64,000 bases of DNA from Patescibacteria group bacterium (GCA_048499955.1 JASNYX010000002.1:4513-68512), one strand, 5' to 3'. Shown: positions 39,164-60,700, counted from the first letter of the stretch. Numbers and translations: made by a program. The notes: generated by a model not told the origin, from the sequence alone.

Positions 39164-40053
39164 ATGCACCCAATATATCCTACAGATGAAATAGAAGAGA
39201 ATCTCGCGATACCCTCCGAAAGCGTTTTTCCGGGTGAATTTTATGATCGATTGGGAGCACACCTCGACTCTGAACTAGTTAATGTACTTCGAAGAGATGG
39301 TCACAATATCGAAGAATTAAAAACGAAACCACCGGTATATATACTTATGCATGGTTATGGCGGGCCTATTGATAAAAACGGAACGCCAAATGTAGAATCC
39401 CGTTATTGTATTAAAGCTACCCTAGAACTCATCTAGTATTTCAAACGAGAAGCATCAAAGCGTGATCATGAATATTATCCGACGATTTTAGTGAGTGGAG
39501 GTACTGATTTCGGATATTATGCGTTTTATGCAGAGGAACTTATCAGGCAAATCCATATTCTCACAGGAGATCCTGATTACACTAATTTTGCAGACATTTG
39601 GGACCAAGGAACATATAAACGACAAAATCCGATTATGCACATGCTGTCGGAACAGGCGGAGAAGTGGAATTTGCGATGAACTTTCTCGCAGGTGAAAGCG
39701 ATCCGGATAAGCCGGTAATCTCGGTATGCAGACTCGGCCATCAAAGTAGAATTCAAAATTTCGCAAACGCACACGATTTCAAATTAACACCATTAACAAT
39801 CGAAGGAATTCTAATGCATTTTAGAACACAGGAAACTATCGATAGATTTATGCGAATCCACCCCGAACAGACTGATAGCATAAGAGGATTTTCAGCCGCC
39901 GAACGACGAAAAGCTACAATATCACGACTATTGGCAGATCCCTCTGAAGCAAAGACACTCGAATCACTCCTCAGAGTTCTACAGAAGCATCTCGGAGACA
40001 ATTTCAAAGATAAACTGTTCAGACTTATCGGACAAAACAAAGTAGAAAATTAA
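39164..40053 (+). pseudogene. DUF218 / YdcF-SanA-like family gene interrupted by an in-frame TAG (39434-39436) and a frameshift (about 39619-39679)
   Basis: Three ORF pieces concatenate into one YdcF-like protein: …VYILMHGYGGP…KATLELI*YFKREASKRDHEYYPTILVSGGTDFGYY… (the first two pieces are in the same frame, separated only by TAG), then frame-shifted …PVISVCRLGHQSRIQNFA…. The ISGG and V..DP.H..R motifs match the YdcF/DUF218 family. Confidence 0.45.
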
Positions 40054-42396: not shown

Positions 42397-43145
42397 TCAA
42401 CACCCCTCTTCAAAAACTTAAAACCTATGGCCTTAAAACTTTTATATACTACACATGGTTAGAAATAGTAAAACATCTGTACTGGTACACGATCAGGCAA
42501 TCATTCAGTCAAAATCAGGAGGATCTGATTATCGACAAGATCTTGGGATACAAAAAAAACGGATTTTATGTAGATGTTGGAGCATATGATCCCGACAGAT
42601 TCAGCAATACCAAGCGGTTCTATTTGAAAGGATGGACCGGAATAAACATTGAACCCGACACACTCAGTTACGAAAAATTTCTAAACAAACGACCGAACGA
42701 TATCAATCTAAATATTGGAATCTCAGATAATCCGGGGGTGCTCACCTATTACAAAATGGAGCCCCAAACACTTTCGACTTTTGTAGAAGATGAGGCGAAA
42801 GAATACATCAAACAGGGATATTCCTTATTGGAAAAGAAAGAGGTCGAGGTAAAATCTTTAGCCGAGGTATTTGATTCTTATCGTGCAAATAATCCAATAG
42901 ACATACTCAGTATAGATACAGAAGGCCTTGATATGGAAGTATTAAAAAGCAATGATTGGACGAAGTATAAACCACAAATTATATGCATAGAATCAGTAAA
43001 ACACCTCAAAATTGATCGGGAAACACCTTCGGTCGACATGAAAGACTCAGATCAACAAAAATATTTAAGCCAATATGACTATACAAAAGTTTTTGACAAC
43101 GGTTTAAACTCAATATATCAACTTAAGGCAAACGGAGAAATCTAA
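42393..43145 (+). CDS. FkbM-family SAM-dependent methyltransferase
   Basis: …KNGFYVDVGAYDPDRFSNTKRFYLKGWTGINIEPD… is typical of the FkbM domain. The probable start is ATG at 42393, overlapping the upstream stop (ATGA). Confidence 0.8.
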   Translation: MINTPLQKLKTYGLKTFIYYTWLEIVKHLYWYTIRQSFSQNQEDLIIDKILGYKKNGFYVDVGAYDPDRFSNTKRFYLKGWTGINIEPDTLSYEKFLNKRPNDINLNIGISDNPGVLTYYKMEPQTLSTFVEDEAKEYIKQGYSLLEKKEVEVKSLAEVFDSYRANNPIDILSIDTEGLDMEVLKSNDWTKYKPQIICIESVKHLKIDRETPSVDMKDSDQQKYLSQYDYTKVFDNGLNSIYQLKANGEI

Positions 43146-44347: not shown

Positions 44348-47300
44348 ATGTCTTTCTGGATTAACTTAATTCGAGGAAATTACATACTAGCCGGTGGAGA
44401 CCACACATACTGGCTCGATCTAAGAGGATTTTTTCTCAAAAAGATTTATGCCTGGCAAAACTTTGCTAGCCCCGGAGAACCTAACCATACGATTCCTGAA
44501 TCTATCATTTCACTTGTTTTTAGCTTATCGGATCGTTTAAATATAAGCTATGGAAATTTTCAGATTATTTTCCTGTTCTTGCTCTTGTCACTTAGCGGTG
44601 TAGCTTTTGTACTTTTACTTAAGGAAATTGAACAAACTTTTAAACTTAATAAGACTATGTATCCTGCACTATTAATCGGTGCGATCTTTTATGTTCTTAA
44701 CCCATTTAATTTCAATATATTGCAGATAGAAAAGATATTGCAGTCAATCGCCTTGCCGATTTGTTTGTATTTCTTATTTTTAGGTAACAGAAAAAACAAC
44801 ATTCTATATCTGGTAGTTGGGGCTGCTTTCACAGCGTTACTTTCTCCTATGTCTATAAACTTAGCGGTATTTGTTGCGGTGTTTATCTTTTTGTTCATTC
44901 ACTCACTTTCCGCAGGAATCGCCAAGAGAGAAAAAATGTCTCATCTATTCAGTTTTCTAATATTTTCACTGTTTAGCATTTTATTTAACCTGTGGTGGAT
45001 ACTGCCTACACTTACATCTCTGCTTACAAGTTCAAACGAATCAATTAGCTTCCTCAGATCAACAAATTTTATAAATTCTGTATGGTTACATGACCTTATC
45101 CGAATGATAACTTCATGGGCTTGGAATAGCGGGCATAGAGATGTTCCTTATGTCGCATTCGCAGAAAGATATAACTCAGGGATATTATTATTTGTAAGTT
45201 TCGCACTTTCAGGAATCCCCTTAATATTTGCACTCAGTAAAATTCGAGGGAAATACAATTTGGTGTATCTATACAGTTTAATCGTCATATTAATAACACT
45301 ATTTCTGGCAAAGGGAGCCACACCTCCTTTTGGATATATATATTCGACGATTTTCTCCAAAATCCCATTATTCTCAATGTTTAGGGAACCATCAGCCAAA
45401 TTCATGCAAGCATACTTTTTACAAATATCTTTACTTCTTAGCTTATTCGTAAACTATTTACTCTCACTTAATTTGCAAACAAAATATAAGAGAGCCTTAG
45501 TTTCTGTGGTGCTATTGGCAGTACTAATTAACGCAGGACCAATACTATCAGGAGAAATAATCTGGGATAAATGGAACGGGTCAATGAGAAGCCTTGTCAC
45601 CAGAATTCCATATTATTGGGAAGATTTTCGCCAAAGCCAAGCAATATCAAATGACCAAGGCACTATTGTGGTGTACCCGGGATCCGGTTATGGAGCTACT
45701 TATAATTGGAGAGAGGGCTTTAACGGAACGGATGTTACGAAGTTTTTTACTAATAATCAGGTTTTAAGTTATTATACTTTCCCTATTGATAGCAAATCCA
45801 AATCAGTAAACTTGATGTTCCCAAAAGCAACTCAAAGTGAACTTCCCAAAAATTTATTTGGCCTGTTCAATATTAAATATTTATTGCAAACAAATGATAG
45901 TGATTGGAGATATTCAGGACTTCCCGGATACACAGTAACAAGCACAAATAGATTTATAGGTAAGACACCTTTCACCGAAATAAACCGATGGGGAAACTTT
46001 GATGAAAGATATCTCGATAGACTCGAAAATCGAGAAAAAGATTATGCGAAAAGAAACGAGCTTTATATCGAGCTAATCAATGAACCGGCACTAAAACTAC
46101 ATCAAATTCAGGAAGACCGATTTGTACCTAAATTTTTTGCTCCTGAAATAACCGTTAATGCAGGTCTTGATAGTATACCCGGAGCAATTGGGCTTAATCA
46201 GAATATAAATAGGCAGGCAGTAATCGATAAAAAAGACTTCCCTGATTCGCCCGAAACAAATTTTACCTTTCTAACAAGCAATCCAACTCTATCCGAAAAC
46301 AAAGAAAATCAAAGTTGGAACATCGGCTGGTCGTGGCCAACCGTGAGTATATCTCCAGAGGACTTTCGATACCGGCTGATTAATATCAAAGAATTAGCCA
46401 GGTTCTGGACAACTAAGGACCCTTTATCAACTGCAGATATACATATTTGGCATGGAGCGAAACGAATTGCCGAAATTGAGTCTTATGTTCTTTCTGAAAA
46501 CACTGAAAAGATATTGCTGAAAGAATACATGAACCAGATGAGAGCTGCGATTACTATTTTACAGAATATTCCCCATGAGGAAAGAAATAAAACTTATTAT
46601 CGTATGACTTCCAAGCTTCTCGGATATATAAATAAATCGAATGATGCAATTTCCAAGATCTCTGATCCGCCACTTTCAAAGCTTGATATCTCTGACTTAG
46701 AAGATTTATTAGAACAAGCCGAAAATGAGGCGAATACTCGGTGCAAGATGGTTTGCTATAAGTTTGATCTAGCTGAAGACGGTGTCTACAGCATTTACCT
46801 GTATCGACATGAGCTGGAGCAACTACCGGTAAACGATGCTCAAATAACATTAGAAATCGAGGGCCTTCAAATAACGAAAACTATATCTGAACTACTGGAA
46901 CAGGACTCTAATTCATACCTGATTAAAATTTCTGAAGTTAGTCTCAGCAACGATCTACACTATATTAACTCGAACATAAACAGCATTGGCACTGATCTCA
47001 TAATAAAAGGCGACCTGGCACCACAAACTATTGATATCATAAAGGATAATCTCGACATACATGTACAAAACTTTAGTATTCCACTTCTGAAAAAGCTTCA
47101 GACATCGAGACCAAGTGAAAATCATGAGATGCCGTTTCCCCTAAATATTAAGGAACGTAAAATTTCCGAATGGAAGCCGAATCAAAAATATGTAATCTCG
47201 TTCGACTATGAAATCAATAAATCATATGTCGGCGCTTCAGTAATGGAAAATATAGAAATAACAGATAATTTGGAGTTAAATAATCTGAATATCAGAGAAA

Positions 47301-48343
47301 CTAGGAGAGAGGCCTTTGGTGTAATTCTTGATGAAAATAACATTGAGGAACCGGAATGTGCATATAAAGAAGCTGATATATGCTTTTCCAACTACAGCCA
47401 AGAATTCACCTCAGGGAATCTGAGGTCAACCGCTTCAGTATACATTTACACATACACAGAAAATAACTGGGGAACTGCCAAAATTCGAAATCTACAAATT
47501 AGGGAAAAGCACGAACCTAGGCTTGCCTTGGCAAAGGAAAACTTTAAGCCGGTGACTACAAATCCGGATATTATATTTTCGAAAGTAAATCCGACAAAGT
47601 ATAAAGTCGACATACGGAATATCAATGATAATTTCTTACTGGTATTTAGTGAAACTTATCACCCGAGGTGGGTTATTCACAAACAGGAAAGTGACAATTT
47701 TTTCACGAATTTACTACTATCAATTAAACCAATCGGAAAACACACGCGAGTCAACGGATACGCAAATGCTTGGTATTTATCTCCTGAAGATTTAGGCAAT
47801 CAAAAAAACATAGAATTAACAGTGGAATACCTACCTCAACGACTCATCGCGATCGGTGCTCTAAGCGGGATTATCACTGCGGTTTTACTGACACCGATCT
47901 TATTAACTTTATCCAAATTATTTAATTCGCGTCTTAAAAAATCAAGTATATTGACTCTCACTAATCCACTTCGAGATAGCTTTGAAAAAGTACAAAAACC
48001 TTTCAATAGGCTTATTAACGATCTTTCGGGAAAGAAATACCGATCTTTAGTAATCGGCATGTTAATGATTTTAGCAATATATAATTTATTTGATTTCACA
48101 AGCGGAATTATTAACGAGCTTAGCATTGTGCTTGTTACGTGTTTGATAATATTAACGATAATGAAACAAAATCATGTGGGCAAATTCTTACCACAAGTCA
48201 CTATTTCGTTAGTTGTATTATTCCCGATATTGATCAGTTTGCATTTAAAAACTGCGACTGCAATCAACGCAATATTAATATTTATCCTAATGCTTATAAT
48301 TGTTTGTAAAGAAATCTGGAGGATCTACAAATCTGATGCTTAA
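44348..48343 (+). CDS. Giant polytopic membrane protein (1331 aa), putative GT-C-type glycosyltransferase with a large extracytoplasmic domain
   Basis: It has roughly 10 N-terminal TM helices, an approximately 700-aa soluble region, and about 4 C-terminal TM helices. Its genomic context is a glycan island. No catalytic motif was confidently recognised. Confidence 0.55.
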   Translation: MSFWINLIRGNYILAGGDHTYWLDLRGFFLKKIYAWQNFASPGEPNHTIPESIISLVFSLSDRLNISYGNFQIIFLFLLLSLSGVAFVLLLKEIEQTFKLNKTMYPALLIGAIFYVLNPFNFNILQIEKILQSIALPICLYFLFLGNRKNNILYLVVGAAFTALLSPMSINLAVFVAVFIFLFIHSLSAGIAKREKMSHLFSFLIFSLFSILFNLWWILPTLTSLLTSSNESISFLRSTNFINSVWLHDLIRMITSWAWNSGHRDVPYVAFAERYNSGILLFVSFALSGIPLIFALSKIRGKYNLVYLYSLIVILITLFLAKGATPPFGYIYSTIFSKIPLFSMFREPSAKFMQAYFLQISLLLSLFVNYLLSLNLQTKYKRALVSVVLLAVLINAGPILSGEIIWDKWNGSMRSLVTRIPYYWEDFRQSQAISNDQGTIVVYPGSGYGATYNWREGFNGTDVTKFFTNNQVLSYYTFPIDSKSKSVNLMFPKATQSELPKNLFGLFNIKYLLQTNDSDWRYSGLPGYTVTSTNRFIGKTPFTEINRWGNFDERYLDRLENREKDYAKRNELYIELINEPALKLHQIQEDRFVPKFFAPEITVNAGLDSIPGAIGLNQNINRQAVIDKKDFPDSPETNFTFLTSNPTLSENKENQSWNIGWSWPTVSISPEDFRYRLINIKELARFWTTKDPLSTADIHIWHGAKRIAEIESYVLSENTEKILLKEYMNQMRAAITILQNIPHEERNKTYYRMTSKLLGYINKSNDAISKISDPPLSKLDISDLEDLLEQAENEANTRCKMVCYKFDLAEDGVYSIYLYRHELEQLPVNDAQITLEIEGLQITKTISELLEQDSNSYLIKISEVSLSNDLHYINSNINSIGTDLIIKGDLAPQTIDIIKDNLDIHVQNFSIPLLKKLQTSRPSENHEMPFPLNIKERKISEWKPNQKYVISFDYEINKSYVGASVMENIEITDNLELNNLNIRETRREAFGVILDENNIEEPECAYKEADICFSNYSQEFTSGNLRSTASVYIYTYTENNWGTAKIRNLQIREKHEPRLALAKENFKPVTTNPDIIFSKVNPTKYKVDIRNINDNFLLVFSETYHPRWVIHKQESDNFFTNLLLSIKPIGKHTRVNGYANAWYLSPEDLGNQKNIELTVEYLPQRLIAIGALSGIITAVLLTPILLTLSKLFNSRLKKSSILTLTNPLRDSFEKVQKPFNRLINDLSGKKYRSLVIGMLMILAIYNLFDFTSGIINELSIVLVTCLIILTIMKQNHVGKFLPQVTISLVVLFPILISLHLKTATAINAILIFILMLIIVCKEIWRIYKSDA

Positions 48344-50015
48344 TCATATTATCGGAAATCTAGAAGATCAAACCGGCATATTTTTCAGGAGTTGGTGGTA
48401 TAGGCACTACAGCGAATTGGGAGGACTTAAAACCTACAGTGAATACTATGGTTATCCAACCGGTACTGATCTTAAGATTTTCACCAACCAACCATTGTTA
48501 TCTTTGACTTATGACGCAATGGTTTACTGGTTTAACCCTCTGATTTTCACGAATATTTATACTGTTCTTCAAGTCATACTAAATATAATTTTGGCAAATG
48601 TTTTGCTAAGGCATCTCGGGATTGATAAAAAGATCTCCTTTCTAGTATCTCTAGTTTTTATATTTTCACCATTCCTTTACTATAATATCGGAATACATCC
48701 GTCCTTATTAACTCTGTGGCCATTTATATGGTTTTTGAAGCGCCTTACTCAATTTGAGGCAGGAGTTAAAAGTAATTTCATTACAGGTTTTTCATTAGCT
48801 GTTACTTTTCTATTCAATAACTACTTTGGATACTTCGGATTGATTTTAATGACGGTTTTTATTTTCACAAACATACTTTTGAATAGAAATAACGTAATAG
48901 CACAACTAAGACGTCTGGTGCTCATGTCAGCATCATTTTTAAGCGTAACCATTGCAGGCTTGCTTCCTTATTTATTAGGTAGTAAACCCGGCGTTACAGT
49001 ACAAGCCGTAACTCGGCCACTTGAAGATTTTTTCTACTTCAGCTCAAGGCCATGGTATTTTTTCTTGCCTTCACCTGATAACCCGTGGATCGGAAAAACC
49101 ACCACCAATATAATAAACTGGCTGCAAAACGATTGGGGATACTGGTTAACGAGCAACTATTTTCCTAGCGAACACACAACATTATTTTTGGGATATACAA
49201 CCTTCCTCTTTGCAATTTTAGGAGCATACTACTTGCTATTCAAAACTGATAATAACGAAATTAAGCAAAGAAACTCCATTCTTGCATTAGGCATATCTGC
49301 AATCGTTTTGATGATGTTGAGTCTTCCTCCTTACTTCACGATTTCGATGTATAAAATTTATACGCCAAGTTACTTACTTCTTAATGTTTTTCCATATTTT
49401 AGAGTATTAGCACGAATGGGAATAATAATACTATTAATTGAATTAATATTCTGTGCATATGGGTATCAATACTTTATTCGGATATTAAAAAGTAAATGGT
49501 CGCAAGCAAGTTGGGTTGTGATCCTGCCCTTTATTATAGTTAGTTTAATGGAATTCTACGTACCTATAACTTTCGTAAAAGTAGAAGAACCACCCCAGAT
49601 TTTCCAATACATTAAAACAAATACCGATGAGGAATCAGTCTTAGCTGTTTATCCTTATAATGGTGCTCTCCCAACTTTATTCTGGATTAGTGAGCACGAG
49701 AGAAGAATCATGAATCCTAGAGACTATACTGATGCATCTCGACATTTTATTTCCGAAGAATTTACACAAGAGTTAAAAACAGATGAAGGACTACAAAGAG
49801 CAAAGGAACTTGGTGCAACTCACTTGGTCTTTTTTAGATATGGTGGAAATAAAGATCGTATTGACGAGTTAAACTATTTCGATAATTCTCCTAAACTTGA
49901 GAAAATCATCGAATTTAACTCTGAATCGAAAGACGAACAATCTTATTTCTTATACAAGGTGAAAATATGGGGAAATACAAAACAAACGTCCGGAGTTTTA
50001 TATAAAATTCTTTAG
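48336..50015 (+). CDS. Polytopic membrane protein (about 560 aa), putative GT-C-type glycosyltransferase
   Basis: The start ATG at 48336 overlaps the stop of the upstream giant gene (translational coupling). There are many TM helices plus a C-terminal soluble domain. Confidence 0.5.
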   Translation: MLNHIIGNLEDQTGIFFRSWWYRHYSELGGLKTYSEYYGYPTGTDLKIFTNQPLLSLTYDAMVYWFNPLIFTNIYTVLQVILNIILANVLLRHLGIDKKISFLVSLVFIFSPFLYYNIGIHPSLLTLWPFIWFLKRLTQFEAGVKSNFITGFSLAVTFLFNNYFGYFGLILMTVFIFTNILLNRNNVIAQLRRLVLMSASFLSVTIAGLLPYLLGSKPGVTVQAVTRPLEDFFYFSSRPWYFFLPSPDNPWIGKTTTNIINWLQNDWGYWLTSNYFPSEHTTLFLGYTTFLFAILGAYYLLFKTDNNEIKQRNSILALGISAIVLMMLSLPPYFTISMYKIYTPSYLLLNVFPYFRVLARMGIIILLIELIFCAYGYQYFIRILKSKWSQASWVVILPFIIVSLMEFYVPITFVKVEEPPQIFQYIKTNTDEESVLAVYPYNGALPTLFWISEHERRIMNPRDYTDASRHFISEEFTQELKTDEGLQRAKELGATHLVFFRYGGNKDRIDELNYFDNSPKLEKIIEFNSESKDEQSYFLYKVKIWGNTKQTSGVLYKIL

Positions 50016-51730
50016 TTACGCTTATCAGTTTTGTCTACAGAAATACTTGTTTCTGACTTCATCTTTGCTTCTTCCTCTGCACTTTGTTTGATTGTCTCTT
50101 CAATCTGTTTATCTTCGCTTTTAGCTGAAAGGTGTGTTCCTAAACTCTTCACCGCATTTATCCAGAATTTTGGCGAAGTCCAATTAACTTTAGTTTGATC
50201 CTTATCGAAATCGAGTAAATGACCTACAAGCTTCCAAGCTGAATATACTAAGAATTTGATATCATCAAGATTTCTAATGGAAAGAACTTTCCGCATAATA
50301 TATTGCGGCGTGAAAAATGATGAGTACAACTCTTGTGTTAGTGCATAAAGCTTTTCATGTTCAAAAGGAATCTTCATGACCGGACCTCTCATGTCAAAAG
50401 CTTCGTAATCAGTAGGGTCAACCAGTAACCAATCATTCTCTATACATTCTTTATATAAAGGTGTTCCCGGATAAGGAATAACAATCGTAGCCTGCATGGT
50501 GTCAACGTATCCGTTCTTGAATAATCTTTTTGCCAAAGCAATAGTGTTCTTAGCATCTTCATATGTTTCCCAAGGATACCCTAACATGACTGTCAAATGA
50601 GGTTCAAGCCCTGCCTTTTTTGCCATTTTCACACCATCTTCGATCTGATGTACTTTAAGGCCTTTATCAAGTTTATCTAAGGTTTTCTGATTTCCGGACT
50701 CCATTCCATATAAAATGAATCTAAAATTGGCCTCTCCCATCAAGTCATAATACTCTTGGGTCAATGCGTTCAAACGCATATTACATCCCATTACAACTTT
50801 TTTGTTATATCCGGACTCAATCAGTAAATTACAAAACTTTTTCAGAGGCGGCCCTACGAATAAAGTTCCGGCATCGTCAAAAATTTCCTTCACTCCGTAG
50901 TTATCAACGACGTGTTTTACTTCTGCAAATAATCTTTCCGGCGAAAACCGGCGGTATGTACCTAACGGATTTATCGTATGATCCCATACACAGAAAGTAC
51001 ATCGATTCCACCAGCAGTCCTTACCTGAATACATATATGTTGCCGGTGAATATTTATAGTTTCCGTTTGCATACGCATAAAGCTCCCACCTAGTGAGATC
51101 TCTGTCAACGAATGGCAATGAATCGAGATTATGTGTTTGCTTAAGCGGGCCTGAAACCCAGAAGGCATCTTTCTCTTTTGTTAATTCGTTGTCTTCAAGT
51201 TTAATGAAATCAGAAAGTTTAACACTTGTATCACTTCGTCTTCCCCAAATACCTCCGGGCAAAACAGTTCCTTTGCTTAAAGAATCTGCAAGATCCGACA
51301 GCAAAAAATCATAATCCCCGCCTGTAATAACATAGTCTACATTGCTATTTATCATTGTTTCTTTTGGAGCAAAGGTTACTTGGTCACCTACAATAACAAC
51401 CTTCATTTTCGGAAATCTTGCTTTTATTTCATTAATAATCATCCAATGTTGCTTTACTACCGGCGACTTAGTTTCAATCATTAAAAGATCAAACTGGCCT
51501 TCTGCAAGCTTTTCGAGCCAAGTCTGATATGACCACTCCTCAGCGATACCATCAAGCCAAGTAACATCATAGCCACGTTCCTGGGCTAGTGAGGCTGCAT
51601 ACGCGGGCACCATAGGGTAGATGTATGTCTTAGCATTGAAATATTGGAATTGGCGATTCTGTGAAAGAAGAGGCACACCTTTGTCGGTCTCAATCGGAGG
51701 ATATCCTACCGCTACCTTATAGTTTTTCAT
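50012..51730 (-). CDS. B12-binding domain radical SAM protein (class B radical SAM, methyltransferase-like)
   Basis: N-terminal cobalamin-binding Rossmann-like region (…KMKVVIVGDQVTF…) followed by the radical SAM cluster motif CWWNRCTFCVWDH (CxxxCxxC). The probable start is MKNYKVAVGYPP at 51730. Confidence 0.85.
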   Translation of the reverse strand: MKNYKVAVGYPPIETDKGVPLLSQNRQFQYFNAKTYIYPMVPAYAASLAQERGYDVTWLDGIAEEWSYQTWLEKLAEGQFDLLMIETKSPVVKQHWMIINEIKARFPKMKVVIVGDQVTFAPKETMINSNVDYVITGGDYDFLLSDLADSLSKGTVLPGGIWGRRSDTSVKLSDFIKLEDNELTKEKDAFWVSGPLKQTHNLDSLPFVDRDLTRWELYAYANGNYKYSPATYMYSGKDCWWNRCTFCVWDHTINPLGTYRRFSPERLFAEVKHVVDNYGVKEIFDDAGTLFVGPPLKKFCNLLIESGYNKKVVMGCNMRLNALTQEYYDLMGEANFRFILYGMESGNQKTLDKLDKGLKVHQIEDGVKMAKKAGLEPHLTVMLGYPWETYEDAKNTIALAKRLFKNGYVDTMQATIVIPYPGTPLYKECIENDWLLVDPTDYEAFDMRGPVMKIPFEHEKLYALTQELYSSFFTPQYIMRKVLSIRNLDDIKFLVYSAWKLVGHLLDFDKDQTKVNWTSPKFWINAVKSLGTHLSAKSEDKQIEETIKQSAEEEAKMKSETSISVDKTDKRN

Positions 51731-52156
51731 ATCTTTAGAACTTTCATTTGAATCCATATACAACATATAGACTATAATAAATATATATATGAATCAACGC
51801 CCAAAGAAGCTAGTCGAAACAGGCATAAACCCCGGAACATTAAATGAGGCTTCACCAATCTTTAAAATGATTCCTTTAGAAGGCGAAATCGAAGCCATTT
51901 CCAAGGCCTTTTCAAAATCATCGCCAACATCTACTACAGAATAAAATGTGTACTCTAAATGCCAGAAGTACTCTATCTAGTTTTTGATCCAATTAAAAAT
52001 CTACTTCTAATCACTTGTAAAAACATTATTCCGATGTCATCAAACTGATCAATTAAGAGAGAATGATCTTGAGCGACTATGCGTTTAATTCTGCACCATA
52101 ATCTTGTTTCCAATACCCCAGATTTAAATTGCAACCATTCATGATAATAGCTACCG

Positions 52157-52642
52157 TCAATATGCAATACTTTTCTTCAAGGTTGTTCCTTCTATTTCTT
52201 CACCGATATAATTTTCGAATTTTTTAATTGCTGATTCGGAAAAATCGGTATCGAGTATCTCAGGATTCGGAGATTCCCATTTTGTGGGGAATTGAAAATG
52301 ATCTAACCAAATTCCTTTTATTTTTAACTTCGACAGTTCTTCGATTTCTTGCAAATGGTAATCTCTGACATTTTTATTTATAGGTGAGACAGGGAAATAT
52401 TCTTCTGATACCGTTTCTTTTCCATGGGCATCAACAGCTTTCGCCTCCGGAAATTTTTCTAATAATGCTCGACCTTCGAAACATCGATATGAAATATAGA
52501 TATCCGTATCGGGGAAAGCTTCAGTGACCAACGATAAATCATTGTCTGCAGAATGGCTTAAAATAACGAAACTACACTTTAGCTTTGCTAATTCAAGAAG
52601 CTTTTCTTTAGGGAGTTTATCGAGGTAAATTCCGTTATGCAT
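52157..52642 (-). CDS. Hypothetical protein, possibly the N-terminal part of a frame-disrupted gene
   Basis: 161 aa with no recognised family. Conserved-looking open reading continues downstream in another frame (51973-52167) and again in the original frame (to 51794). Confidence 0.4.
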   Translation of the reverse strand: MHNGIYLDKLPKEKLLELAKLKCSFVILSHSADNDLSLVTEAFPDTDIYISYRCFEGRALLEKFPEAKAVDAHGKETVSEEYFPVSPINKNVRDYHLQEIEELSKLKIKGIWLDHFQFPTKWESPNPEILDTDFSESAIKKFENYIGEEIEGTTLKKSIAY

Positions 52643-52910
52643 TTTTTGGGGTCTCCGGGGGATAAATTTGATTACCTTCTAAATCTTCGATAATTATAGC
52701 CGTTGTAGGGCACGATTTTGCACCTTCGATAATTTGAACGGCATCATCCCATGTTCCATCCTTAACAAACGCAATACCGTCATCATCAAGATCAAAAGTT
52801 TCAGGAGCTCTAATCACACAAATTCCCGCACTAATACAAAGATGGTTAATAACTTTAATTTTCACTTTTGAACCGGGTTGAGAAGCGAAAGAGTTTTGTC
52901 CGTTTTTATC
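52635..52910 (-). CDS. Small ferredoxin (single [4Fe-4S]/[3Fe-4S] cluster type)
   Basis: HLCISAGICVIRAPETFDLDDDGIAFV…AKSCPTTAI has the CxxGxC…CP arrangement of small clostridial/archaeal-type ferredoxins. The start is probably an internal Met (MDKNGQ at 52910) rather than the ORF-track start, which overlaps the upstream GT2. Confidence 0.65.
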   Translation of the reverse strand, partial: DKNGQNSFASQPGSKVKIKVINHLCISAGICVIRAPETFDLDDDGIAFVKDGTWDDAVQIIEGAKSCPTTAIIIEDLEGNQIYPPETPKNA

Positions 52911-52950
52911 CATAGTATCCCGAGTGTAACAAATAGGTTGAAAGTCTGCA

Positions 52951-54162
52951 TCAGCTTTCAGCTCGACCATAGTTGTCTTCTGTTTTCCTCGTAAATAAGA
53001 ATCCTTGTAAAAATTTATATCCATACCATAAATGCGTAAGCATCACACCGGGAAAGCTTAATAATGAAATCTTTAGGTCTCTGCTTTTACTGAGTACCCA
53101 AAACGAATTTACCAAAAGGATTATTAAATATGAAAATAACGCAAAAAGATAAATTCGAGCCAGAAACTCTAACACTACGCTATCGGTTACTAACGCTGCG
53201 ATTAAGATTAGAGGCCCTAAAATATTCCCTAGTAAAAATAATGATGGGATGAAATAAAACCATCTGCGAGAAGTCTCAGGCAAAGCTCGTGCAAAATAAC
53301 CACGATGCAACCCGAATCTTCCATTTTGTATTAAGTGCTTTTTAAATAACGGCCTTTTATGGTGATAAACAAGAATCTCCGGATCATACATAATCTTTTT
53401 CCCGAGGCGTTTAGTTAAGTCTAAACATAATTTGGTGTCCTCCCCCGGATAATAGTCTGAATCGAAACCTTTCACTGCCTTAAAGTCTTCCGCCCTTACA
53501 ATCAAATTCATAGAAGGGAAATCGTCGACCTCTCGTTTATTTTGGGGTAAAAATCGATAGGTGCTCCCAAACCCGCCTACGGGACTCGCGGTCACCCACC
53601 CCGAAGCTTTTTCCATAATATCAGCGTCATCAGGTGTGATGCCGGGGCCTCCAACAGCAGCGATATCTTTGTCGCCAAAATACGGTGCGGCAGCCATTAA
53701 CCAGTTTTCGGATGGATAAGCATCATCATCAATAAAAGCGTAGATCTGGCCTTTTGCATGTTTCATGGCTAAATCTCTTTTTTCAGCAGGCTTATTCTTT
53801 GTTGAAGCATCTGAAATAAATTTTACTTTAGGAAACATTCTACCCATCACCGGTTCAGTAGTGAAAACAAGAATCTCGAAATTCGGGTAATTTAAGTTTC
53901 GATATTTAACTATAGATTCAGCTAAAAATGAATTCCATTTTTCACATATAATTATCACGGAAACAAATGGATATTCATTTTTGTCTGAAAAGTTTTTCGG
54001 GATATGGGGATCTTTCACAAGGCCAATTTTAACAAAGAATGAACTGATACTAAATGTACCAGTGTTGCAATTAATAAGCGAATAACAATTCTTGTATAAT
54101 TCACTAATGAGCGAAATAAAAAAATTCTGGCTAGCCTTTTTGATTTCATTTACCGCTTTCAC
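52951..54162 (-). CDS. Glycosyltransferase family 2 with C-terminal membrane helices
   Basis: …YPFVSVIIICEKWNS…FEILVFTTEP… followed by 3-4 C-terminal TM helices. The true start may be an internal TTG/GTG, since the first roughly 60 residues look like a spurious extension. Confidence 0.75.
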   Translation of the reverse strand: MKAVNEIKKASQNFFISLISELYKNCYSLINCNTGTFSISSFFVKIGLVKDPHIPKNFSDKNEYPFVSVIIICEKWNSFLAESIVKYRNLNYPNFEILVFTTEPVMGRMFPKVKFISDASTKNKPAEKRDLAMKHAKGQIYAFIDDDAYPSENWLMAAAPYFGDKDIAAVGGPGITPDDADIMEKASGWVTASPVGGFGSTYRFLPQNKREVDDFPSMNLIVRAEDFKAVKGFDSDYYPGEDTKLCLDLTKRLGKKIMYDPEILVYHHKRPLFKKHLIQNGRFGLHRGYFARALPETSRRWFYFIPSLFLLGNILGPLILIAALVTDSVVLEFLARIYLFALFSYLIILLVNSFWVLSKSRDLKISLLSFPGVMLTHLWYGYKFLQGFLFTRKTEDNYGRAES

Positions 54163-55459
54163 ATTATCATTTCTTTTTGTCTATATTACAAAGCTTAATC
54201 ACCTAACACTTCAAAGCGAAGACTACCTCGGAACAGCAACATTGCCATTTTCGATACTTAAAGAAGGCAATTTCGAATTAAATGAGTATTACGAAGAGTT
54301 AACATCTGCATATCCTCAACCTGATGACTCAACCTTAACCCCATACTATCTTAAGGAATCAAACGGTAATTACTACTCGATCCGACCTGTACTTACAGCG
54401 TTTTTGGCGACCCCGGTTTATATCTTTCCGGTATTACTCGATATTAATATCGACATTGAAACAATCAGAATAATGAGCAGATTTGGAGGGGCATTCATAA
54501 CTGCTCTTTCGGCAGGATTTTTTTATCTCATAGCAGATAAACTGACTAAAAATCGGAAATTCAAATATCTTCTTTTTATTGTTTACTGCTTCGGCACAAA
54601 TTCACTAAGCACTAGCAGCCAAGGTTTGTGGCAACATGGGTCGAGTCAGCTATTATTATCGCTCGGATTGTATTTGCTTTTGAATCGTAAAGTTTTCGGA
54701 TCGGCTCTGGCATTCGGATTTGCGGTCATTTCACGCCCCACGAATCTACTTACATACCTAATCTTCGGGTTATACATCTTATTTCAAAAAACGGAAAATC
54801 GAGCTGAAAAAATGAAGAATATCGCAGTCTACGCAACCGGAGGAATTATCCCTATCCTCCTAGAGTTGCTGTTTAATCAAATCGTATTCGGAAATCCGGA
54901 TAATCCCGGATATGCCGAGCAAATGTCCGGTTGGAGAGCAAATTGGCTGGAGGGTATTTTTGGAATGTGGATCTCACCAAGCAAAGGCATACTTATAAAC
55001 TCACCTGTTTTGATTTTTATTTTTTATGGGGTCTTCGTAAAATTTAAAGAATTCATGAAAACAAAAGAAATGAATATCTACATCCCTATAATTTTATCTG
55101 CAATTCTATACACAATCGCAATGGGCAAATGGTATAGCTGGTACGGAGGCTACAGCTGGGGATATAGAATGGCAAGTGATGTACTTCCGTTTATGGTTCT
55201 TCTGTTGATTCCTGCCTTAGAGAGTTTCTATAATCAGAACTCTGTTTTCCGTAATTTGATACTTACATTAACAGGTATCAGCATATTTAATCATCTATTC
55301 GGATTAGTATTCTTTGATGGAATCTGGCACACTGTTCACGACGGTAAAAAACCGGGATGGCTCTGGAGTATTAGTGAAAGTGAATATATATTTGATTTCA
55401 AACGAATACTATATAAGCTTGGGATTGGCGACAACCCAATAAAAATACCGACAGACTAA
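54107..55459 (+). CDS. Polytopic membrane protein, putative GT-C-type glycosyltransferase
   Basis: About 12 TM helices. The probable ATG at 54107 lies only 6 nt downstream of an extended -10 element (TTGTATAAT, 54092-54100), suggesting a leaderless transcript. Confidence 0.5.
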   Translation: MSEIKKFWLAFLISFTAFTLSFLFVYITKLNHLTLQSEDYLGTATLPFSILKEGNFELNEYYEELTSAYPQPDDSTLTPYYLKESNGNYYSIRPVLTAFLATPVYIFPVLLDINIDIETIRIMSRFGGAFITALSAGFFYLIADKLTKNRKFKYLLFIVYCFGTNSLSTSSQGLWQHGSSQLLLSLGLYLLLNRKVFGSALAFGFAVISRPTNLLTYLIFGLYILFQKTENRAEKMKNIAVYATGGIIPILLELLFNQIVFGNPDNPGYAEQMSGWRANWLEGIFGMWISPSKGILINSPVLIFIFYGVFVKFKEFMKTKEMNIYIPIILSAILYTIAMGKWYSWYGGYSWGYRMASDVLPFMVLLLIPALESFYNQNSVFRNLILTLTGISIFNHLFGLVFFDGIWHTVHDGKKPGWLWSISESEYIFDFKRILYKLGIGDNPIKIPTD

Positions 55460-57729
55460 TCCAATCTCTCGAAAATTGTTAATCTATACTCTCCCTGAGT
55501 TATCTCATCAAAACGCATATCCTCTGTTACTTCGGTAGGATGAGTCACATTTGTTTCAATAGACGTCAGTACAAGTAACTTTGTATTCTCATCATAGATT
55601 TTCGTGTCATGAAACCGGGAATCATATATAACAATTTGATCTCTAACAAAATAAAATTTACCGAAATCGTCATCTTCTAATCGATCAGTATAATATGCGA
55701 TTAGTGGTGACCACTCGGGATTTTCAATATAAATAACGGCATTATTTGTCATACTCCTGTTTGCTGCAAGCTCAATCAAAAAACTAAGATCCGAATCATA
55801 TCCCTGGCCGTAGAAATCATTGGCGCGCACAACACCCAACACGGAAACAGCAACGATCATGATCGCCAGTAATCCTTTATTAACACAATCACAGATAATA
55901 ATATTGCGATACTTTCGGATTACCGAATATAGCATATGAAGAGCGATAAACATCAAGAAGATATAGAAACTTGACGGCGAAGTGCTACCTAACGGATGGT
56001 AAATATTTCCGATCGCAAGAGCTAAAACCCCATATAAATATGCACTTAAAATTCCAAAACCGATTCTTCGGAAAAGCCCGATAGCAATAAGTAAACCGGA
56101 GAAATAAAACAGAACAGACAAGGCTCTACCCGTAAAAGAATAATTCCCAAGAACATATCTGAAAACATTCAGAAAATAACGATAAAAATCAGTAACACTA
56201 TTCGATGATTCGGGAAGATAAAACTGCCCAATCTCATAGGCATTTAACGGGAAAATGAAATATACCAACGGAGCCAAAATTGAAACCAGACCCAGAACGC
56301 CTAAAAGTAAAACCTTCCGGTTATTAACAATAAATTCTCTAATTCTCAACTCCCCTTTAATGCGTAGTGACGCATATGCACATGCAAAAACCACATAAAA
56401 CCAAAAGAACTCTGATTTATACGAGTAAAACAATCCACCAACCAAAAATGAAATGATCCCCGCCATTAAACCCAAAGCCATATAGTCAGACCTCGATTTA
56501 TAAACCTGAAATAGCATTACCAGCAAAATTATCCAAAATAATAGAAATACCAGAAACGAAAAAAGCCCTGTCTCAACCCACGTCTCCAACCATAGGTTAT
56601 GAAGTGGTAATTTGAGGTTTAGAGCAGCTCTGTCAATGTAATAGTAAGCATCCGCCCACTTAGAAGTTCTAAAATACTCGCTAAAAGAGTTAACCCCGAT
56701 TCCGTACAAGAAATTTTCGAAACCTATTATTATCCCTACTTTTAACAAAAACAAATGTGAATAAAACGAAACTGCCCTATACAAAAAGGCAGAACGCATG
56801 GACTCCATAAACTGGCTTATAAATAGCAATGGAACCCCGGCAGCTATTAGCCCACTCGTTAAATAAAAACCTGCACTCGAAATAGATTTCCTCAAATTCC
56901 TGCTTCCCACAAAAATCAGATATGTGAATAATGTGCCACCAACTAGAAATCCTAAAAACGCACTTCTAGAACCGGTTAATTTCAAGGCGAATAACAAAAA
57001 AACCGATAGCACCAGAAGCCAAATGATTTGAGGCTTACTCAAGTGGTTCGATTTTTCTTCAACAGAATCAGAGTTGAAAAACCTAAATCCCCGAATAGCC
57101 ATAACTTTGCTTAATATCCAAGCACGTGCCTCGCTCAGCTGTGCATCTCCGTGTAAAAACAGGGTCTTGAGTATAAATCCCATAAGGAGGAAAAATATAG
57201 CTGAAACAAAAGCTCCGAAATGGTTTACATCCCAAAACGTAGCACCGTATCTGGTTGGGTACCCGGGTACCGGCCACACGCCTCCGCTTGCAATACCTAA
57301 GTTTTCCTGTAAATAAATTTGCCTAATCATAAAACCCGCCATGAAAGTAATCGCCAATGCATACATTAGAACAATATTTTTCACTCCGGACTTTGACTTC
57401 TTTAAAAAATCCTTCAGCAATACATATAAAAACAAGACGGAAGCCTGGAATAAAATGAACTTGGTTGAATCAGGAATCGAATTCGAAGCGAACAAACTTA
57501 GTATCTGAAAGCCCACAAGGAGTGAAAGGAGAATAAAAAAGATGTCCTTAGAATAGCTTTTCAAGTTTCGCACGAAAACGTAAAAACCTCCGAAAGCACA
57601 CACCGCTAGTAGAATTTTAGAATACACTAAATCGGGATCAAAAATTGAGTATGCTTCCTTGTGCGTGAAAGGAATCAAAAGCACAAGAGCAAATATAAGT
57701 ACCGATTTAAGATTTAGTGTTTTAATCAT
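55456..57729 (-). CDS. Large membrane protein with O-antigen ligase/polymerase (Wzy_C)-like motifs
   Basis: It has …LTGSRSAFLGFLVGG… and …GYPTRYGATFWDVNHFGAF… motifs, shared with the adjacent paralog. The probable start is ATG at 57729, overlapping the upstream stop (ATGA). Confidence 0.65.
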   Translation of the reverse strand: MIKTLNLKSVLIFALVLLIPFTHKEAYSIFDPDLVYSKILLAVCAFGGFYVFVRNLKSYSKDIFFILLSLLVGFQILSLFASNSIPDSTKFILFQASVLFLYVLLKDFLKKSKSGVKNIVLMYALAITFMAGFMIRQIYLQENLGIASGGVWPVPGYPTRYGATFWDVNHFGAFVSAIFFLLMGFILKTLFLHGDAQLSEARAWILSKVMAIRGFRFFNSDSVEEKSNHLSKPQIIWLLVLSVFLLFALKLTGSRSAFLGFLVGGTLFTYLIFVGSRNLRKSISSAGFYLTSGLIAAGVPLLFISQFMESMRSAFLYRAVSFYSHLFLLKVGIIIGFENFLYGIGVNSFSEYFRTSKWADAYYYIDRAALNLKLPLHNLWLETWVETGLFSFLVFLLFWIILLVMLFQVYKSRSDYMALGLMAGIISFLVGGLFYSYKSEFFWFYVVFACAYASLRIKGELRIREFIVNNRKVLLLGVLGLVSILAPLVYFIFPLNAYEIGQFYLPESSNSVTDFYRYFLNVFRYVLGNYSFTGRALSVLFYFSGLLIAIGLFRRIGFGILSAYLYGVLALAIGNIYHPLGSTSPSSFYIFLMFIALHMLYSVIRKYRNIIICDCVNKGLLAIMIVAVSVLGVVRANDFYGQGYDSDLSFLIELAANRSMTNNAVIYIENPEWSPLIAYYTDRLEDDDFGKFYFVRDQIVIYDSRFHDTKIYDENTKLLVLTSIETNVTHPTEVTEDMRFDEITQGEYRLTIFERLD

Positions 57730-60700
57730 TGTTGTTGTATTAGCATCAATGCGGTTGGGTCTTCCGGTGGATTCCCCCATTCTACTAGCTGATTTGAAAT
57801 AACTATGATCCTGTTTCTCAAACTTGCAAAGCGGCTCTGTTGATATGCCAACCGACGTGCTGGTGGTATTAACTCCAACTTTTTGTATTCAGCCAGTCTT
57901 GTGCCAAGCTCAATTTTGTAGATTTCAACACGCGATCTTGATTTAAATAATACCCAGTCCCCTGCTGAACCTTTAACGTCTAATGATAATGGGAAATCGA
58001 CTTTTGCTTCTTCGCCTTTAACAGAATAATAAATTTTATTTGGAGTTAAGAATGACAGTGCTTCATCAGGCTCGGCATCCTCAATTTTCTTTACTATATC
58101 CGGACCTGAAATCGACGATACGCGATGATCACTATAAAATAGTACAACAGCATGGCCGGCAGTGTTGTAATAAAGCTTCTTATCGGGATGATCTTCAACC
58201 GGATAGATATCATTATGAATCTCGATTAAGGCGGCTTTATCTCGATTGGCATCAGGATAATAAATCTTATCAACATTCCAAGCTAAAGTGAAAACTGATA
58301 ATACGAATATACCAATCAGTGCTACAAACCTAACAACCTTATGGTCAAGTGAAAACTCATTTTTGATAATGTTATTGGCCCAATAAAGAAATCTCTCCGA
58401 AAATCTTCCTGCAATTAAAGCTAGAAACGGATACATAGGCATTATGTACCATTGTAGTTTGTCTCTTGAATATGTGAAAAAACTGAATAAATAGACAATG
58501 ACTAACATTAAAAGCAAATACTCTTTTCTTCGATTTTTATCAATAAATGGAAGGCATACAATACCCGCAAGCAATGGGGCGAGCCATAATCTAAATGAAG
58601 TTTTTATCACAGTTAAATACCATAGAGGCGGCTGTATGTGGCCTAAACCATCTACACCACGCTTTAATACGTGTTCAAAAAAGTAATCATCCAAAAAATC
58701 ACTACCGTGCCTTATATACTGTAATATATGCCAAGGTCCCGCAATAAGTGTCGCTCCAATAATCATCACGAGCCCTAATCCGATACTTTTATAATTTTTA
58801 TTGACAACTGATAAGTAAAGAAGATATGCGATATAGGTTGGTAGTAATAACAATCCGATAATCCCCTTAGTCAAAATCCCAAAGCCTATGCTTAGTCCGA
58901 CCATGAAAGAGTAGTAGATTGAACGCCTCTTTGATATCGATATGTAGTTTTGTATAAGACGGTAGAAAAAATAAAACGATAGAAGTATAAAAAAAGTCAC
59001 AGAAACATCGAGCATACCGTTTCGGGAGTAGTAAACATACTGAATCGTCGACAGAAGCAATAAAGCTGAGAATATACCCGCAAGACGGTTATACATTTTC
59101 GCTCCGGTTCTATAAACTAGGATAACCCCACCAACCCCGGCGACAGCTGACCAAAACCTGGCAGCAAACTCGGCAAAATCACGATATCCTACAAGCTTAA
59201 ACATCAGTGCAGTCAGCCACATATAAAGCGGTGGTTTTTCAAACCAATATTTTGAAAGATTATCCCATCTTAGGGAAAGCCACTCCCCTGTCATTACCAT
59301 ATTTTTTGCTACTTTTGCATAAATAGCTTCATCTACGTCGATTAAAGCCGATGATCCAAGTTTAATGAAAGTGAAAAATACTGCAGGAGGAACAATAATA
59401 AGATACGGAGTTAAAGTTGATTTGCTCCACCATGAAAAGATATCAAGCAACTTTATATGGAAACTATTTGAAACATACACATATCCAATTCCAAGGAAAA
59501 TTGATATCCAAAAGAACTCCATATTGTACGAATAGAATATTCCGGCGGTTAAAACCGAAATTACACTTCCCAGAACTCCAATGCCCAAATACTTCATTTT
59601 ACGTTCATCTGCATTAAATACTGAGTAAATAAGCGAACTCAAAAGCAGCACAATAAATGAGGCGTAAAGCGTAACCCCAACAGCACCACTTTCTGCTAAA
59701 ACTTCTCCCCAAACGCTATGAGACGGAACTCTGGATTCTCTTAGTTTTGGCTCCCGATCAAAGTAGTCAGAAGCGGTTTCGGTTTGCCTGAAAGCATAAT
59801 CGAAAGTTCCATATCCGGAACCGATGAAGAAATTATTGTGAAAGATTTCCGCAGATGCATCAAGTAGCATAAAATGGGTATCGGTAGAATCAAGCCTATA
59901 ATGCATATATCGCGAAATTTTCGACTTAATATCCACACCTTGCACCACTGAGTAGATCAGAATCCCCAAGGATCCAAGCAAAAGTCCGGCCACGGCGAAC
60001 ATTAGCGGTTTCTTGAGTTTAGTCCAATAATATACTGCAAGACTAATTAACATTCCGACAGCGATTCCAATCCAGGCACTTCTTGATTGAGTCATGAAAA
60101 GTAACCAAGAAAGAAATCCCAGAAAACCAACATACATAAACTTTCGCTTGAGGCTTTCTGAAATAAAAATATAGCTAAAAGCTAAGGGGATTAATGTGAT
60201 CAGATATCCTCCATAGTGATTTACGTCCCAAAAGGTGGAACCTAAACGTGGAAGCACATTCGGTACAACCCATACTCCACCTATAGTTTCCCTACAGCAC
60301 ATCCTAAGATAGAACTGTATGACCGCAAATATCCCGGCAAGCAAGCCGATAAACAGATAAACATTGAGAATCGTAAAATAATTTTCTTTATTTTCCTTTA
60401 TAACGACCTTAAAAAGCAGATAGTAGTAAACGGCCAATGAATAAAACGCAAAAAGTGCAGCACTCTGAGAAAACACCTCTGAATTTACTAGAGATACACC
60501 CCTAGTTACTAAAAGCATGGCCAAAAGTACAAAGAACGGGTCTTTTATAAATTGGTCTTTTACTTTATTCCATATGACATGTTTTGGGGTCTTAATCATC
60601 CAAACAACAACGGAAGTAATCGCGTAAACTAATGTTCCAAGTAAGAAAATTCGTATCGGGAGTAAATCCCAAATTACTAAGCTAAAAAGCTCTTTGTGCA

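Follow-up and report, generated by a model that had tools for sequence, protein, structure and literature searches.

In a 64,000-nucleotide stretch of DNA from a Patescibacteria group bacterium (GCA_048499955.1, JASNYX010000002.1:4513-68512; hereafter the window), a gene for a radical S-adenosylmethionine (SAM) protein, here called rSAM, lies downstream of a gene for a membrane-anchored family-2 glycosyltransferase (GT2), GT2a, within an island of glycan genes. We propose with moderate confidence that the two genes form a module, GT2a then rSAM, of a glycan cassette whose product would be built on a lipid carrier, with rSAM modifying the sugar. The gene neighborhood suggests that rSAM probably alters a sugar on a membrane-bound intermediate during cell-surface glycan synthesis. 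The core genes are as follows, counted from the first nucleotide of the window.

50012-51766, minus strand: rSAM open reading frame (ORF), 584 aa, with an N-terminal Rossmann (B12-type) domain and a radical SAM domain
51797-52642, minus strand: u336 pseudogene, between the ferredoxin and rSAM genes; a 161-aa ORF (52157-52642) is one of its fragments
52635-52913, minus strand: single-cluster ferredoxin, 92 aa, from Met38 of a 129-aa ORF that runs to 53024
52951-54018, minus strand: GT2a, 355 aa, in an ORF that extends to 54162

A glycosyltransferase and radical SAM pair conserved across phyla

Linkage was counted from tblastn searches with the window proteins, in the 33 non-WWE3-type and 17 WWE3-type loci with enough flanking sequence; the window itself is grouped with genomes of the candidate division WWE3 (Patescibacteria) type. 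In 32/33 non-WWE3-type loci the end of GT2a falls -35 to +136 bp from where rSAM starts, and GT2a lies upstream of rSAM in 17/17 WWE3-type loci. This direct succession of a membrane GT2 and rSAM supports the claim, made in an earlier reading of the window from sequence alone (the sequence-only reading), that rSAM belongs to glycan biosynthesis. Since the ferredoxin is absent from all 33 non-WWE3-type loci, we regard it as accessory and not core; judged by gene order, the conserved unit is GT2-rSAM.

The best 120 rSAM homologues share 69-93% identity, and those with names belong to candidate division WWE3 or Patescibacteria; only 225 clusters at 50% identity score below 1e-30. A scan of species-representative genomes recovered 57 rSAM loci, of which 21 are at least 73% identical and labeled WWE3, 'Saccharibacteria' or Patescibacteria. 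The remaining 36, at 44-53% identity, come from Solidesulfovibrio, Verrucomicrobia, Methylacidiphilum, Acidobacteriota, Microgenomates, Shapirobacteria and others. The occurrence of the family in WWE3 and in each of these named taxa contradicts the earlier expectation that such an enzyme would be rare outside antibiotic pathways. The GT2a-rSAM pair is also found in a culture-collection strain, Solidesulfovibrio alcoholivorans DSM 5433; within Solidesulfovibrio, loci L028 and L032 have it.

Within the WWE3-type loci, rSAM is 73-81% identical, versus 36-44% for GT2a in the same comparisons. Most WWE3-type GT2a proteins, at that distance from the window copy, share 50-62% identity with GT2a of loci L001 and L002; the window protein is 60-66% identical to a separate subgroup (P0384-P0400) that has the same Wzy_C-flanked arrangement. 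The alignments indicate two GT2a subtypes alongside one highly conserved rSAM.

The GT2a start near 54018 is that of an NCBI protein of 355 aa (P0383) with 100% identity. Its Pfam matches exceed threshold (Glyco_trans_2_3, 34.5 bits; Glycos_transf_2, 31.5 bits), and its best NCBIfam matches, MftF, EpsD and AglG, all fall below cutoff. The C-terminus features hydrophobic membrane helices, placed at residues 226-342 in an AlphaFold2 model with a predicted local distance difference test (pLDDT) score of 91, and Foldseek neighbors of this model include cellulose synthase (BcsA), hyaluronan synthase and archaeal PcManGT. In its GT-A fold followed by membrane helices, GT2a conforms to the membrane GT2 enzymes that resemble cellulose synthase and ceramide glucosyltransferase. 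The alignment features a conserved DDD (97-99), an invariant GEDT (192-195) and Q231-N-G-R-Y/F-G, which we take to be putative counterparts of the D,D,D / TED / QxxRW catalytic signature.

The rSAM family is a distinct branch of class-B-type enzymes

Homologues of rSAM (560-575 aa) begin aligning only at residue ~14-17 of the 584-aa ORF, so translation probably starts at Met12 (nt 51733), giving 573 aa. A 573-aa radical SAM protein on the minus strand of the glycan island is precisely what had been described, and the assignment is borne out by Pfam Radical_SAM (PF04055; 61.7 bits against a threshold of 29.5, E 1.2e-16, residues 254-411). Transmembrane helices are absent from rSAM, as they are from u336 and from GT2b, a second GT2 of the cassette. 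The string CWWNRCTFCVWDH and the three cysteines of the reported cluster motif are present (C251-WWNR-C256-TF-C259), but the spacing is Cx4Cx2C, not the canonical Cx3Cx2C. This spacing is kept in 44/44 aligned full-length members of the family. Distant class-B relatives have the canonical SRGCPxxCxFC, and it is these that score best on the profile of HpnJ. Across phyla, at least 97% of rSAM sequences agree at each of 115 positions, many of which lie in the N-terminal domain. A SPASM/twitch auxiliary cluster was considered and rejected, as the family has no conserved extra cysteine set (C328 is invariant, C312 is found in 40/44 and C441 in 29/44).

Inteins favor highly conserved active-site positions. 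Six rSAM homologues (P0122-P0126 and P0150) feature inteins with LAGLIDADG homing endonucleases, which interrupt the Cx4Cx2C motif at Cys1 (P0123) or Cys3 (P0122, P0125, P0126), comprising at least two different insertion sites. After splicing, P0123 has a Cx17Cx2C spacing.

The sequence-only reading also proposed an N-terminal cobalamin-binding domain. Its architecture is supported: the AlphaFold2 model (pLDDT 79.9) comprises a Rossmann domain followed by the radical SAM barrel, and Foldseek aligns its partial TIM-barrel core with AprD4, TsrM, MgmA, OxsB, TokK, MiaB, HydE and others. The cofactor is less secure, the N-terminus scoring 27.3 bits on Pfam B12-binding (PF02310), under the threshold of 32.1. 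Many rSAM homologues, including intein-bearing ones, exceed that threshold (34-40 bits).

Among NCBIfam profiles, HpnJ (TIGR03471) scores highest on rSAM, at 158.7 bits over a nearly full-length alignment (residues 46-496; cutoff 577.6), followed by BchE (68.7 bits, cutoff 481); PhpK reaches 64 bits (cutoff 600) and the AprD4 family (NF033070) 36.3 bits (cutoff 500). The lead of HpnJ over every methylase profile exceeds 90 bits, most class-B methylase profiles align with the rSAM core only, and rSAM orthologues from outside the candidate phyla radiation (CPR) score 148 bits on HpnJ. The curated cutoffs rule out true membership of HpnJ, BchE or AprD4. A housekeeping identity of the MiaB/RimO type was likewise rejected, in agreement with the earlier reading: NCBIfam gave no such match at E <= 0.01, and MiaB structures rank under the class-B enzymes.

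The top Foldseek match to the rSAM model is AprD4 with paromamine bound (PDB 6FD2; E 3e-18, TM-score 0.72 normalized to the target, 15% identity), which is also the second-best PDB sequence match. It is followed by TsrM, MgmA/QCMT, OxsB, TokK and CysS, then MiaB, with class-B E-values of 1e-17 to 1e-10. A weak N-terminal alignment to MgmA/QCMT (0.6 bits) sets rSAM 'GDQ' against QCMT 'GGP', and 'GGDYDF' against 'GEGE'. A review of these enzymes lists AprD4 among those unrelated to the B12-dependent ones, and gives no diagnostic sequence motif for cobalamin binding. Because AprD4 has it, a class-B-like architecture can exist outside the B12-dependent class. Overall, sequence comparison indicates that the rSAM family is a distinct branch of class-B-type radical SAM proteins, set apart by its Cx4Cx2C motif and its obligate pairing with a membrane GT2.

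A cassette-specific ferredoxin and the u336 pseudogene

The ferredoxin reported upstream of rSAM on the same strand is present, with matches to Fer4_13, Fer4_15 and Fer4_19 (34.3, 30.9 and 26.7 bits; thresholds 24.5, 22.4 and 24), although several of its details required revision. The 129-aa ORF (52635-53024) is over-long, as 16 orthologues in an alignment of 17 begin at its Met38, leaving 92 aa; the supposed gene between the ferredoxin and rSAM is a pseudogene fragment; and the motif is C-I-S-A-G-I-C...C-P (CxxAxxC...CP). Four cluster-ligating cysteines had been expected, yet across the 17 aligned orthologues the CxxCxxC...CP set for a [4Fe-4S] cluster is absent: three cysteines are conserved, and the second position is Ala in 17/17. 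This matches a recognized [3Fe-4S] pattern, CxxA/GxxC(x)nCP (PMC6237146), and by its motif we assign the ferredoxin to the [3Fe-4S] type.

The ferredoxin is found directly after GT2a, between GT2 and rSAM, in 15/17 WWE3-type loci, and in four further places found through the ferredoxin itself. Orthologues at least 59% identical, where their context was examined, all lie in the cassette, and an independent look-up of orthologues returned the order PMT_2, PMT_2, Polysacc_synt, GT2b, GT2a, ferredoxin, rSAM. This cassette-specific orthologue group upholds the earlier view of the ferredoxin as dedicated. The earlier reading had advised looking for the same rSAM-ferredoxin pair in related glycan loci; it recurs within the WWE3 type but not outside it (0/33), where tblastn and a scan for small ORFs with CxxXxxC...CP gave nothing beyond spurious hits, out of frame in high-GC DNA. 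Outside the cassette, the nearest ferredoxin (L065:6001-6216, 71 aa, 55% identity) is encoded in a SUF/NifU/cysteine-desulfurase operon belonging to a different Patescibacteria genome, which suggests that the cassette ferredoxin may derive from a housekeeping ferredoxin linked to Fe-S assembly.

Intact relatives of u336 comprise 310-340 aa with four invariant cysteines (CPTH ... DTCYCxRC), and their sole Pfam match is a weak one to DUF4015 (glycoside-hydrolase-like). When searched with these copies by tblastn, the window yields three fragments in two frames, with an in-frame stop, a deletion of ~28 aa and all four conserved cysteines replaced (VSPIN, DTDFSESA). An intact copy remains in the closest relative found (L067:10373-11305), and the gene occurs directly after the ferredoxin in 8/17 WWE3-type loci and in 0/33 non-WWE3-type loci. 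A 241-aa protein between GT2a and rSAM in L002 and L003, which has no Pfam match, is unrelated to u336. The ferredoxin is kept where u336 is absent or, as in the window, decayed; the window copy is intact and 78% identical to its orthologues, and the ferredoxin directly precedes rSAM without u336 in L012, L014, L015, L016, L018, L019, L023 and L061-L064. This persistence argues that the ferredoxin serves rSAM rather than u336.

The cassette and its surroundings

The first 30 kb of the window comprise housekeeping genes (a type II/IV secretion ATPase, two aminoacyl-tRNA synthetases, FtsZ, FtsW and a penicillin-binding protein). The glycan island extends from ~30.9 kb to the window end (64 kb), with Pfam matches to GT2, GT4, GT-C/PMT_2, Wzy_C, Polysacc_synt flippase and epimerases. 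The recurrent cassette order is GT-C (PMT_2) / Wzx-like flippase / GT2b / GT2a / (ferredoxin) / (u336) / rSAM, with the flippase and GT2b immediately upstream of GT2a in most WWE3-type loci. GT2b and GT2a are fused in some lineages (633, 571 and 544 aa). The best matches of GT2b, weak and below cutoff, are the polyprenyl-/dolichyl-phosphate sugar synthases AglJ, PpgS, PgfS and ArnC. In the window, the island includes the following features.

36264-37544, plus strand: Polysacc_synt (Wzx-like) flippase (Pfam)
37534-38304, plus strand: GT2b, a short soluble GT2 (Pfam)
42348-43145, plus strand: FkbM methyltransferase (PF05050, 72.9 bits), 6.9 kb from rSAM
54092-55459, plus strand: GT-C-like protein (NCBIfam LA_3751/LA_3752 family, 59 bits, below cutoff)
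55456-57780, minus strand: Wzy_C protein, 774 aa (Pfam)
57726-60824, minus strand: Wzy_C and PMT_2 fusion, 1032 aa, O-antigen ligase/polymerase-like and GT-C (Pfam)

The opposite-strand GT-C gene and the two Wzy_C proteins precede GT2a in the window, an arrangement common to L067, in which the fusion and the 774-aa protein have the same gene order. The FkbM methyltransferase confirms an earlier report of such a gene ~7 kb from rSAM. Adjoining rSAM on the opposite strand are two ORFs with hydrophobic stretches and no Pfam or NCBIfam match (44348-48343, 1331 aa, and 48300-50015, 571 aa, both plus strand), which may encode novel membrane glycosyltransferases. In the closest relatives, a gene of 159-163 aa with no Pfam match directly follows rSAM (L067:13058-13537, L068:12067-12558); it is absent from the window, where the 571-aa ORF abuts the rSAM stop. 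Downstream of GT2b, a 209-aa ORF (38529-39158, plus strand) with the N-terminal half of a GT2 domain alone is followed by a 129-aa ORF (39664-40053, plus strand) with no family match; the two may represent a split or degraded GT2 gene.

Outside the WWE3 type, the cassette of L040 lies inside an apparent deoxy-amino-sugar cluster with a GDP-mannose 4,6-dehydratase family protein, a DegT-family aminotransferase and an acetyltransferase. A second, canonical class-B radical SAM protein (Cx3Cx2C; B12-binding 49 bits) is encoded there close downstream of the GT2a-rSAM pair (L040:12532-13971), and likewise in L041, L051 and L052. By their sequences, some non-WWE3 cassettes thus carry two different B12-type radical SAM proteins. 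A search of the 64-kb window for cobalamin riboswitches and other RNA elements found only two tRNAs. Promoter and terminator scanning of 49.8-54.4 kb gave no more than expected from shuffled sequence, with no terminator separating the ferredoxin from rSAM.

Proposed function and alternatives

A lipid-linked intermediate is plausible because GT2a is anchored in the membrane, GT2b bears a weak resemblance to polyprenyl-phosphate sugar synthases, and flippase and GT-C genes are adjacent. In the proposed pathway, GT2b and/or GT2a, working at the cytoplasmic face of the membrane, would attach a sugar to an acceptor anchored in it. The rSAM protein would then reductively cleave SAM at the [4Fe-4S] cluster held by its Cx4Cx2C motif, and the 5'-deoxyadenosyl radical would modify the sugar. 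The product would be exported by the Wzx-like flippase, and passed to a surface acceptor by the GT-C (PMT_2) and Wzy_C enzymes. Within the WWE3 lineage, the cassette-specific [3Fe-4S]-type ferredoxin would be the most likely electron carrier for rSAM.

As for the chemistry, our tentative first choice, by analogy, is a non-methylating radical rearrangement of the HpnJ/HpnI kind, in which a hexose would become a carbocyclic or otherwise rearranged sugar; C-methylation is next in likelihood. We lean towards a non-methylating reaction because HpnJ leads the methylase profiles, BchE is second and AprD4 is the best structural match. Both HpnJ and BchE are described as non-methylases in a second review. 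HpnJ has been proposed to contract the ring of the glucosamine put on bacteriohopanetetrol by HpnI, a GT2 that attaches N-acetylglucosamine, and the radical SAM calditol synthase of Sulfolobus has been proposed to turn a lipid-linked hexose into a cyclitol. A broader proposal, which we advance as a possibility rather than an expectation, is that GT2a-rSAM represents a widespread, unrecognized step of envelope-glycan synthesis. A lipid-linked hexose would become carbocyclic or be otherwise rearranged by HpnJ- or calditol-like chemistry, transferred from hopanoid and archaeal lipids to a surface-glycan pathway of the Wzx/GT-C type, by an enzyme with a non-canonical Cx4Cx2C cluster site and possibly with no cobalamin.

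Several observations weigh against these proposals. Most class-B enzymes are methylases, which makes C-methylation a strong alternative. The rSAM protein fails the HpnJ cutoff (158.7 versus 577.6 bits), GT2a has no match to the HpnI model in NCBIfam, and hopanoid genes (shc/hpnF, hpnH, hpnI, hpnK) were seen neither among the scanned window ORFs nor among recurrent neighbors in 60 loci. The HpnJ reaction was itself deduced solely from a knockout. Literature searches on the rSAM family in Patescibacteria/CPR, glycosyltransferase, polysaccharide and cobalamin contexts found nothing relevant, and no member has been studied. The window cassette is moreover rearranged: the flippase and GT2b lie on the opposite strand at a distance of 15 kb, and u336 is dead. 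Where rSAM is displaced by several genes (L001, L006, L011, L013, L024), the ferredoxin remains beside GT2a and u336 and does not accompany rSAM. Radical SAM clusters usually need ~-450 mV or lower. Characterized [3Fe-4S] ferredoxins have potentials of ~-203 to -85 mV (PMC6237146). Because these potentials lie above the need of the rSAM cluster, the ferredoxin would be expected to be a poor reductant for rSAM; it may shuttle or accept electrons instead of purely reducing.

C-methylation would make rSAM a cobalamin-dependent class-B C-methyltransferase that forms a branched-chain sugar on a lipid-linked intermediate, with methylcobalamin regenerated from SAM and the ferredoxin giving two electrons per turnover. 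We consider this possible, though doubtful. The Rossmann and radical SAM architecture would fit, Foldseek matches include the cobalamin enzymes TsrM, MgmA, OxsB, TokK and CysS, the N-terminal domain is strongly conserved across phyla, and many homologues pass Pfam B12-binding at 34-40 bits, but the window protein does not (27.3 versus 32.1). Most characterized class-B enzymes methylate, for example GenK, an aminoglycoside enzyme, and MoeK5, which methylates carbon in moenomycin biosynthesis and co-localizes with HpnJ in a published similarity network; yet the top two profiles, HpnJ and BchE, are those of non-methylases, the top structure is AprD4, and the N-terminal 'GDQ' and 'GGDYDF' replace the 'GGP' and 'GEGE' of QCMT, within the weak 0.6-bit alignment. 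An electron-consuming reaction suits a dedicated electron carrier, although a [3Fe-4S] ferredoxin is, partly on general grounds, unlikely to reach cob(I)alamin potentials. To our knowledge, CPR bacteria generally lack cobalamin synthesis, which also counts against methylation. If rSAM were instead a cobalamin-independent, AprD4-like radical dehydratase, deoxygenase or oxidase with a glycoside as its substrate, the N-terminal domain would bind substrate and not cofactor. The ranking of the AprD4-paromamine complex in both structural (E 3e-18, TM-score 0.72) and PDB sequence comparisons points in this direction, as do the listing of AprD4 apart from the B12-dependent class, the sub-threshold B12-binding score of rSAM, and the higher potential of a [3Fe-4S] ferredoxin, which would fit an electron-accepting or shuttling role. 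However, rSAM scores 36.3 bits on the AprD4 family profile (cutoff 500), well under its 158.7 on HpnJ, its identity to AprD4 is 15%, and no AprD3-like reductase partner is conserved beside it; we rate this reading as improbable.

The role of the ferredoxin and the target of rSAM may also be read differently. It is unlikely, in our view, that the ferredoxin is not the partner of rSAM and serves the four-Cys u336, or is a general-purpose ferredoxin that merely lies in the cassette. In keeping with that idea, the ferredoxin neighbors u336 wherever a locus has both, the two remain with GT2a when rSAM is displaced, the four invariant u336 cysteines could bind a metal or cluster, the nearest non-cassette ferredoxin lies in a SUF/NifU operon, and the expected [3Fe-4S] potential is high. 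It is opposed by the 11 loci listed above in which the ferredoxin directly precedes rSAM with no u336, by the intact window ferredoxin next to a decayed u336, and by the confinement of the examined orthologues to the cassette, in which rSAM is the sole protein with an obligatory electron need. Less probable than any of these is that rSAM modifies the lipid carrier or anchor (a polyprenyl or acyl chain), or else a protein or peptide, as do HpnP/HpnR, Tes, Grs and the methylases of RiPPs (peptides made by the ribosome and then modified post-translationally). Several lipid-modifying radical SAM proteins are class-B-like, and rSAM weakly matches a ladderane lipid radical SAM profile (44 bits) and the RiPP enzymes ApyD and rSAM_ocin_1. 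Nevertheless, the partner that it keeps across phyla is a glycosyltransferase, genes for lipid synthesis or precursor peptides are not conserved beside it, and it lacks a SPASM/auxiliary-cluster cysteine set, C328 alone being invariant among its extra cysteines.

Comparison with known systems

The genomes of CPR/Patescibacteria are tiny, and these bacteria rely on contact between their cell surface and their hosts. The constancy of rSAM against the divergence of GT2a, together with their linkage across phyla, suggests a specific and probably unusual sugar modification central to the envelope. If the rearranged-sugar proposal is correct, rSAM would matter enough to CPR bacteria for its identity to have remained above 70% among WWE3-type genomes and for inteins to have colonized its cluster cysteines. 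The family provides a natural Cx4Cx2C variant of the class-B scaffold, and a test case for the need for cobalamin in organisms presumed incapable of its synthesis. The pair in S. alcoholivorans DSM 5433 may make the question open to experiment.

The closest analogy is with HpnJ and HpnI. HpnJ is the best-scoring named family (158.7 bits), the Rossmann-plus-radical SAM architecture is shared, and HpnJ is proposed to act on a membrane-lipid sugar attached by HpnI, as rSAM is paired with GT2a. In contrast, rSAM remains far below the HpnJ cutoff of 577.6 bits and has Cx4Cx2C in place of the SRGCPxxCxFC of the best HpnJ-scoring relatives; its context is a Wzx/GT-C glycan cassette with no hopanoid genes or HpnK deacetylase, and GT2a is not HpnI. 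AprD4, the radical SAM 1,2-diol dehydratase of apramycin biosynthesis (6FD2), ranks first in the structural comparison, its N-terminal domain is class-B-like and its substrate, paromamine, is a glycoside, but it functions in an antibiotic pathway and is distant in sequence (15% identity; 36 versus 500 bits on its profile).

The polyprenyl-phosphate pathways of the Gtr, Arn and archaeal Agl systems also feature a short GT2 (weak matches to AglJ, PpgS and ArnC), a second GT2 (weak match to AglG), a Polysacc_synt flippase and a PMT_2 GT-C. The family matches of the cassette lie far below cutoffs, however, and the likeness is one of gene content, not membership. We know of no radical SAM step in these pathways. 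The actinobacterial [3Fe-4S] ferredoxins associated with cytochrome P450 enzymes share the CxxAxxC(x)nCP motif, and are likewise small, acidic and encoded beside a presumed enzyme partner. The window ferredoxin differs in its presumed partner, rSAM, in an N-terminal extension of ~20 aa, and in its confinement to the WWE3-type cassette.

The class-B enzymes GenK, MoeK5, Fom3, TsrM, OxsB, TokK and MgmA/QCMT have a domain architecture in common with rSAM, and two of them, GenK (gentamicin) and MoeK5 (moenomycin), are methylases of natural-product pathways that involve sugars. Unlike these enzymes, rSAM features a divergent N-terminal domain that scores below the PF02310 threshold and a cluster motif one residue longer, and its family is found in primary cell-envelope glycan loci of many phyla rather than in antibiotic clusters.

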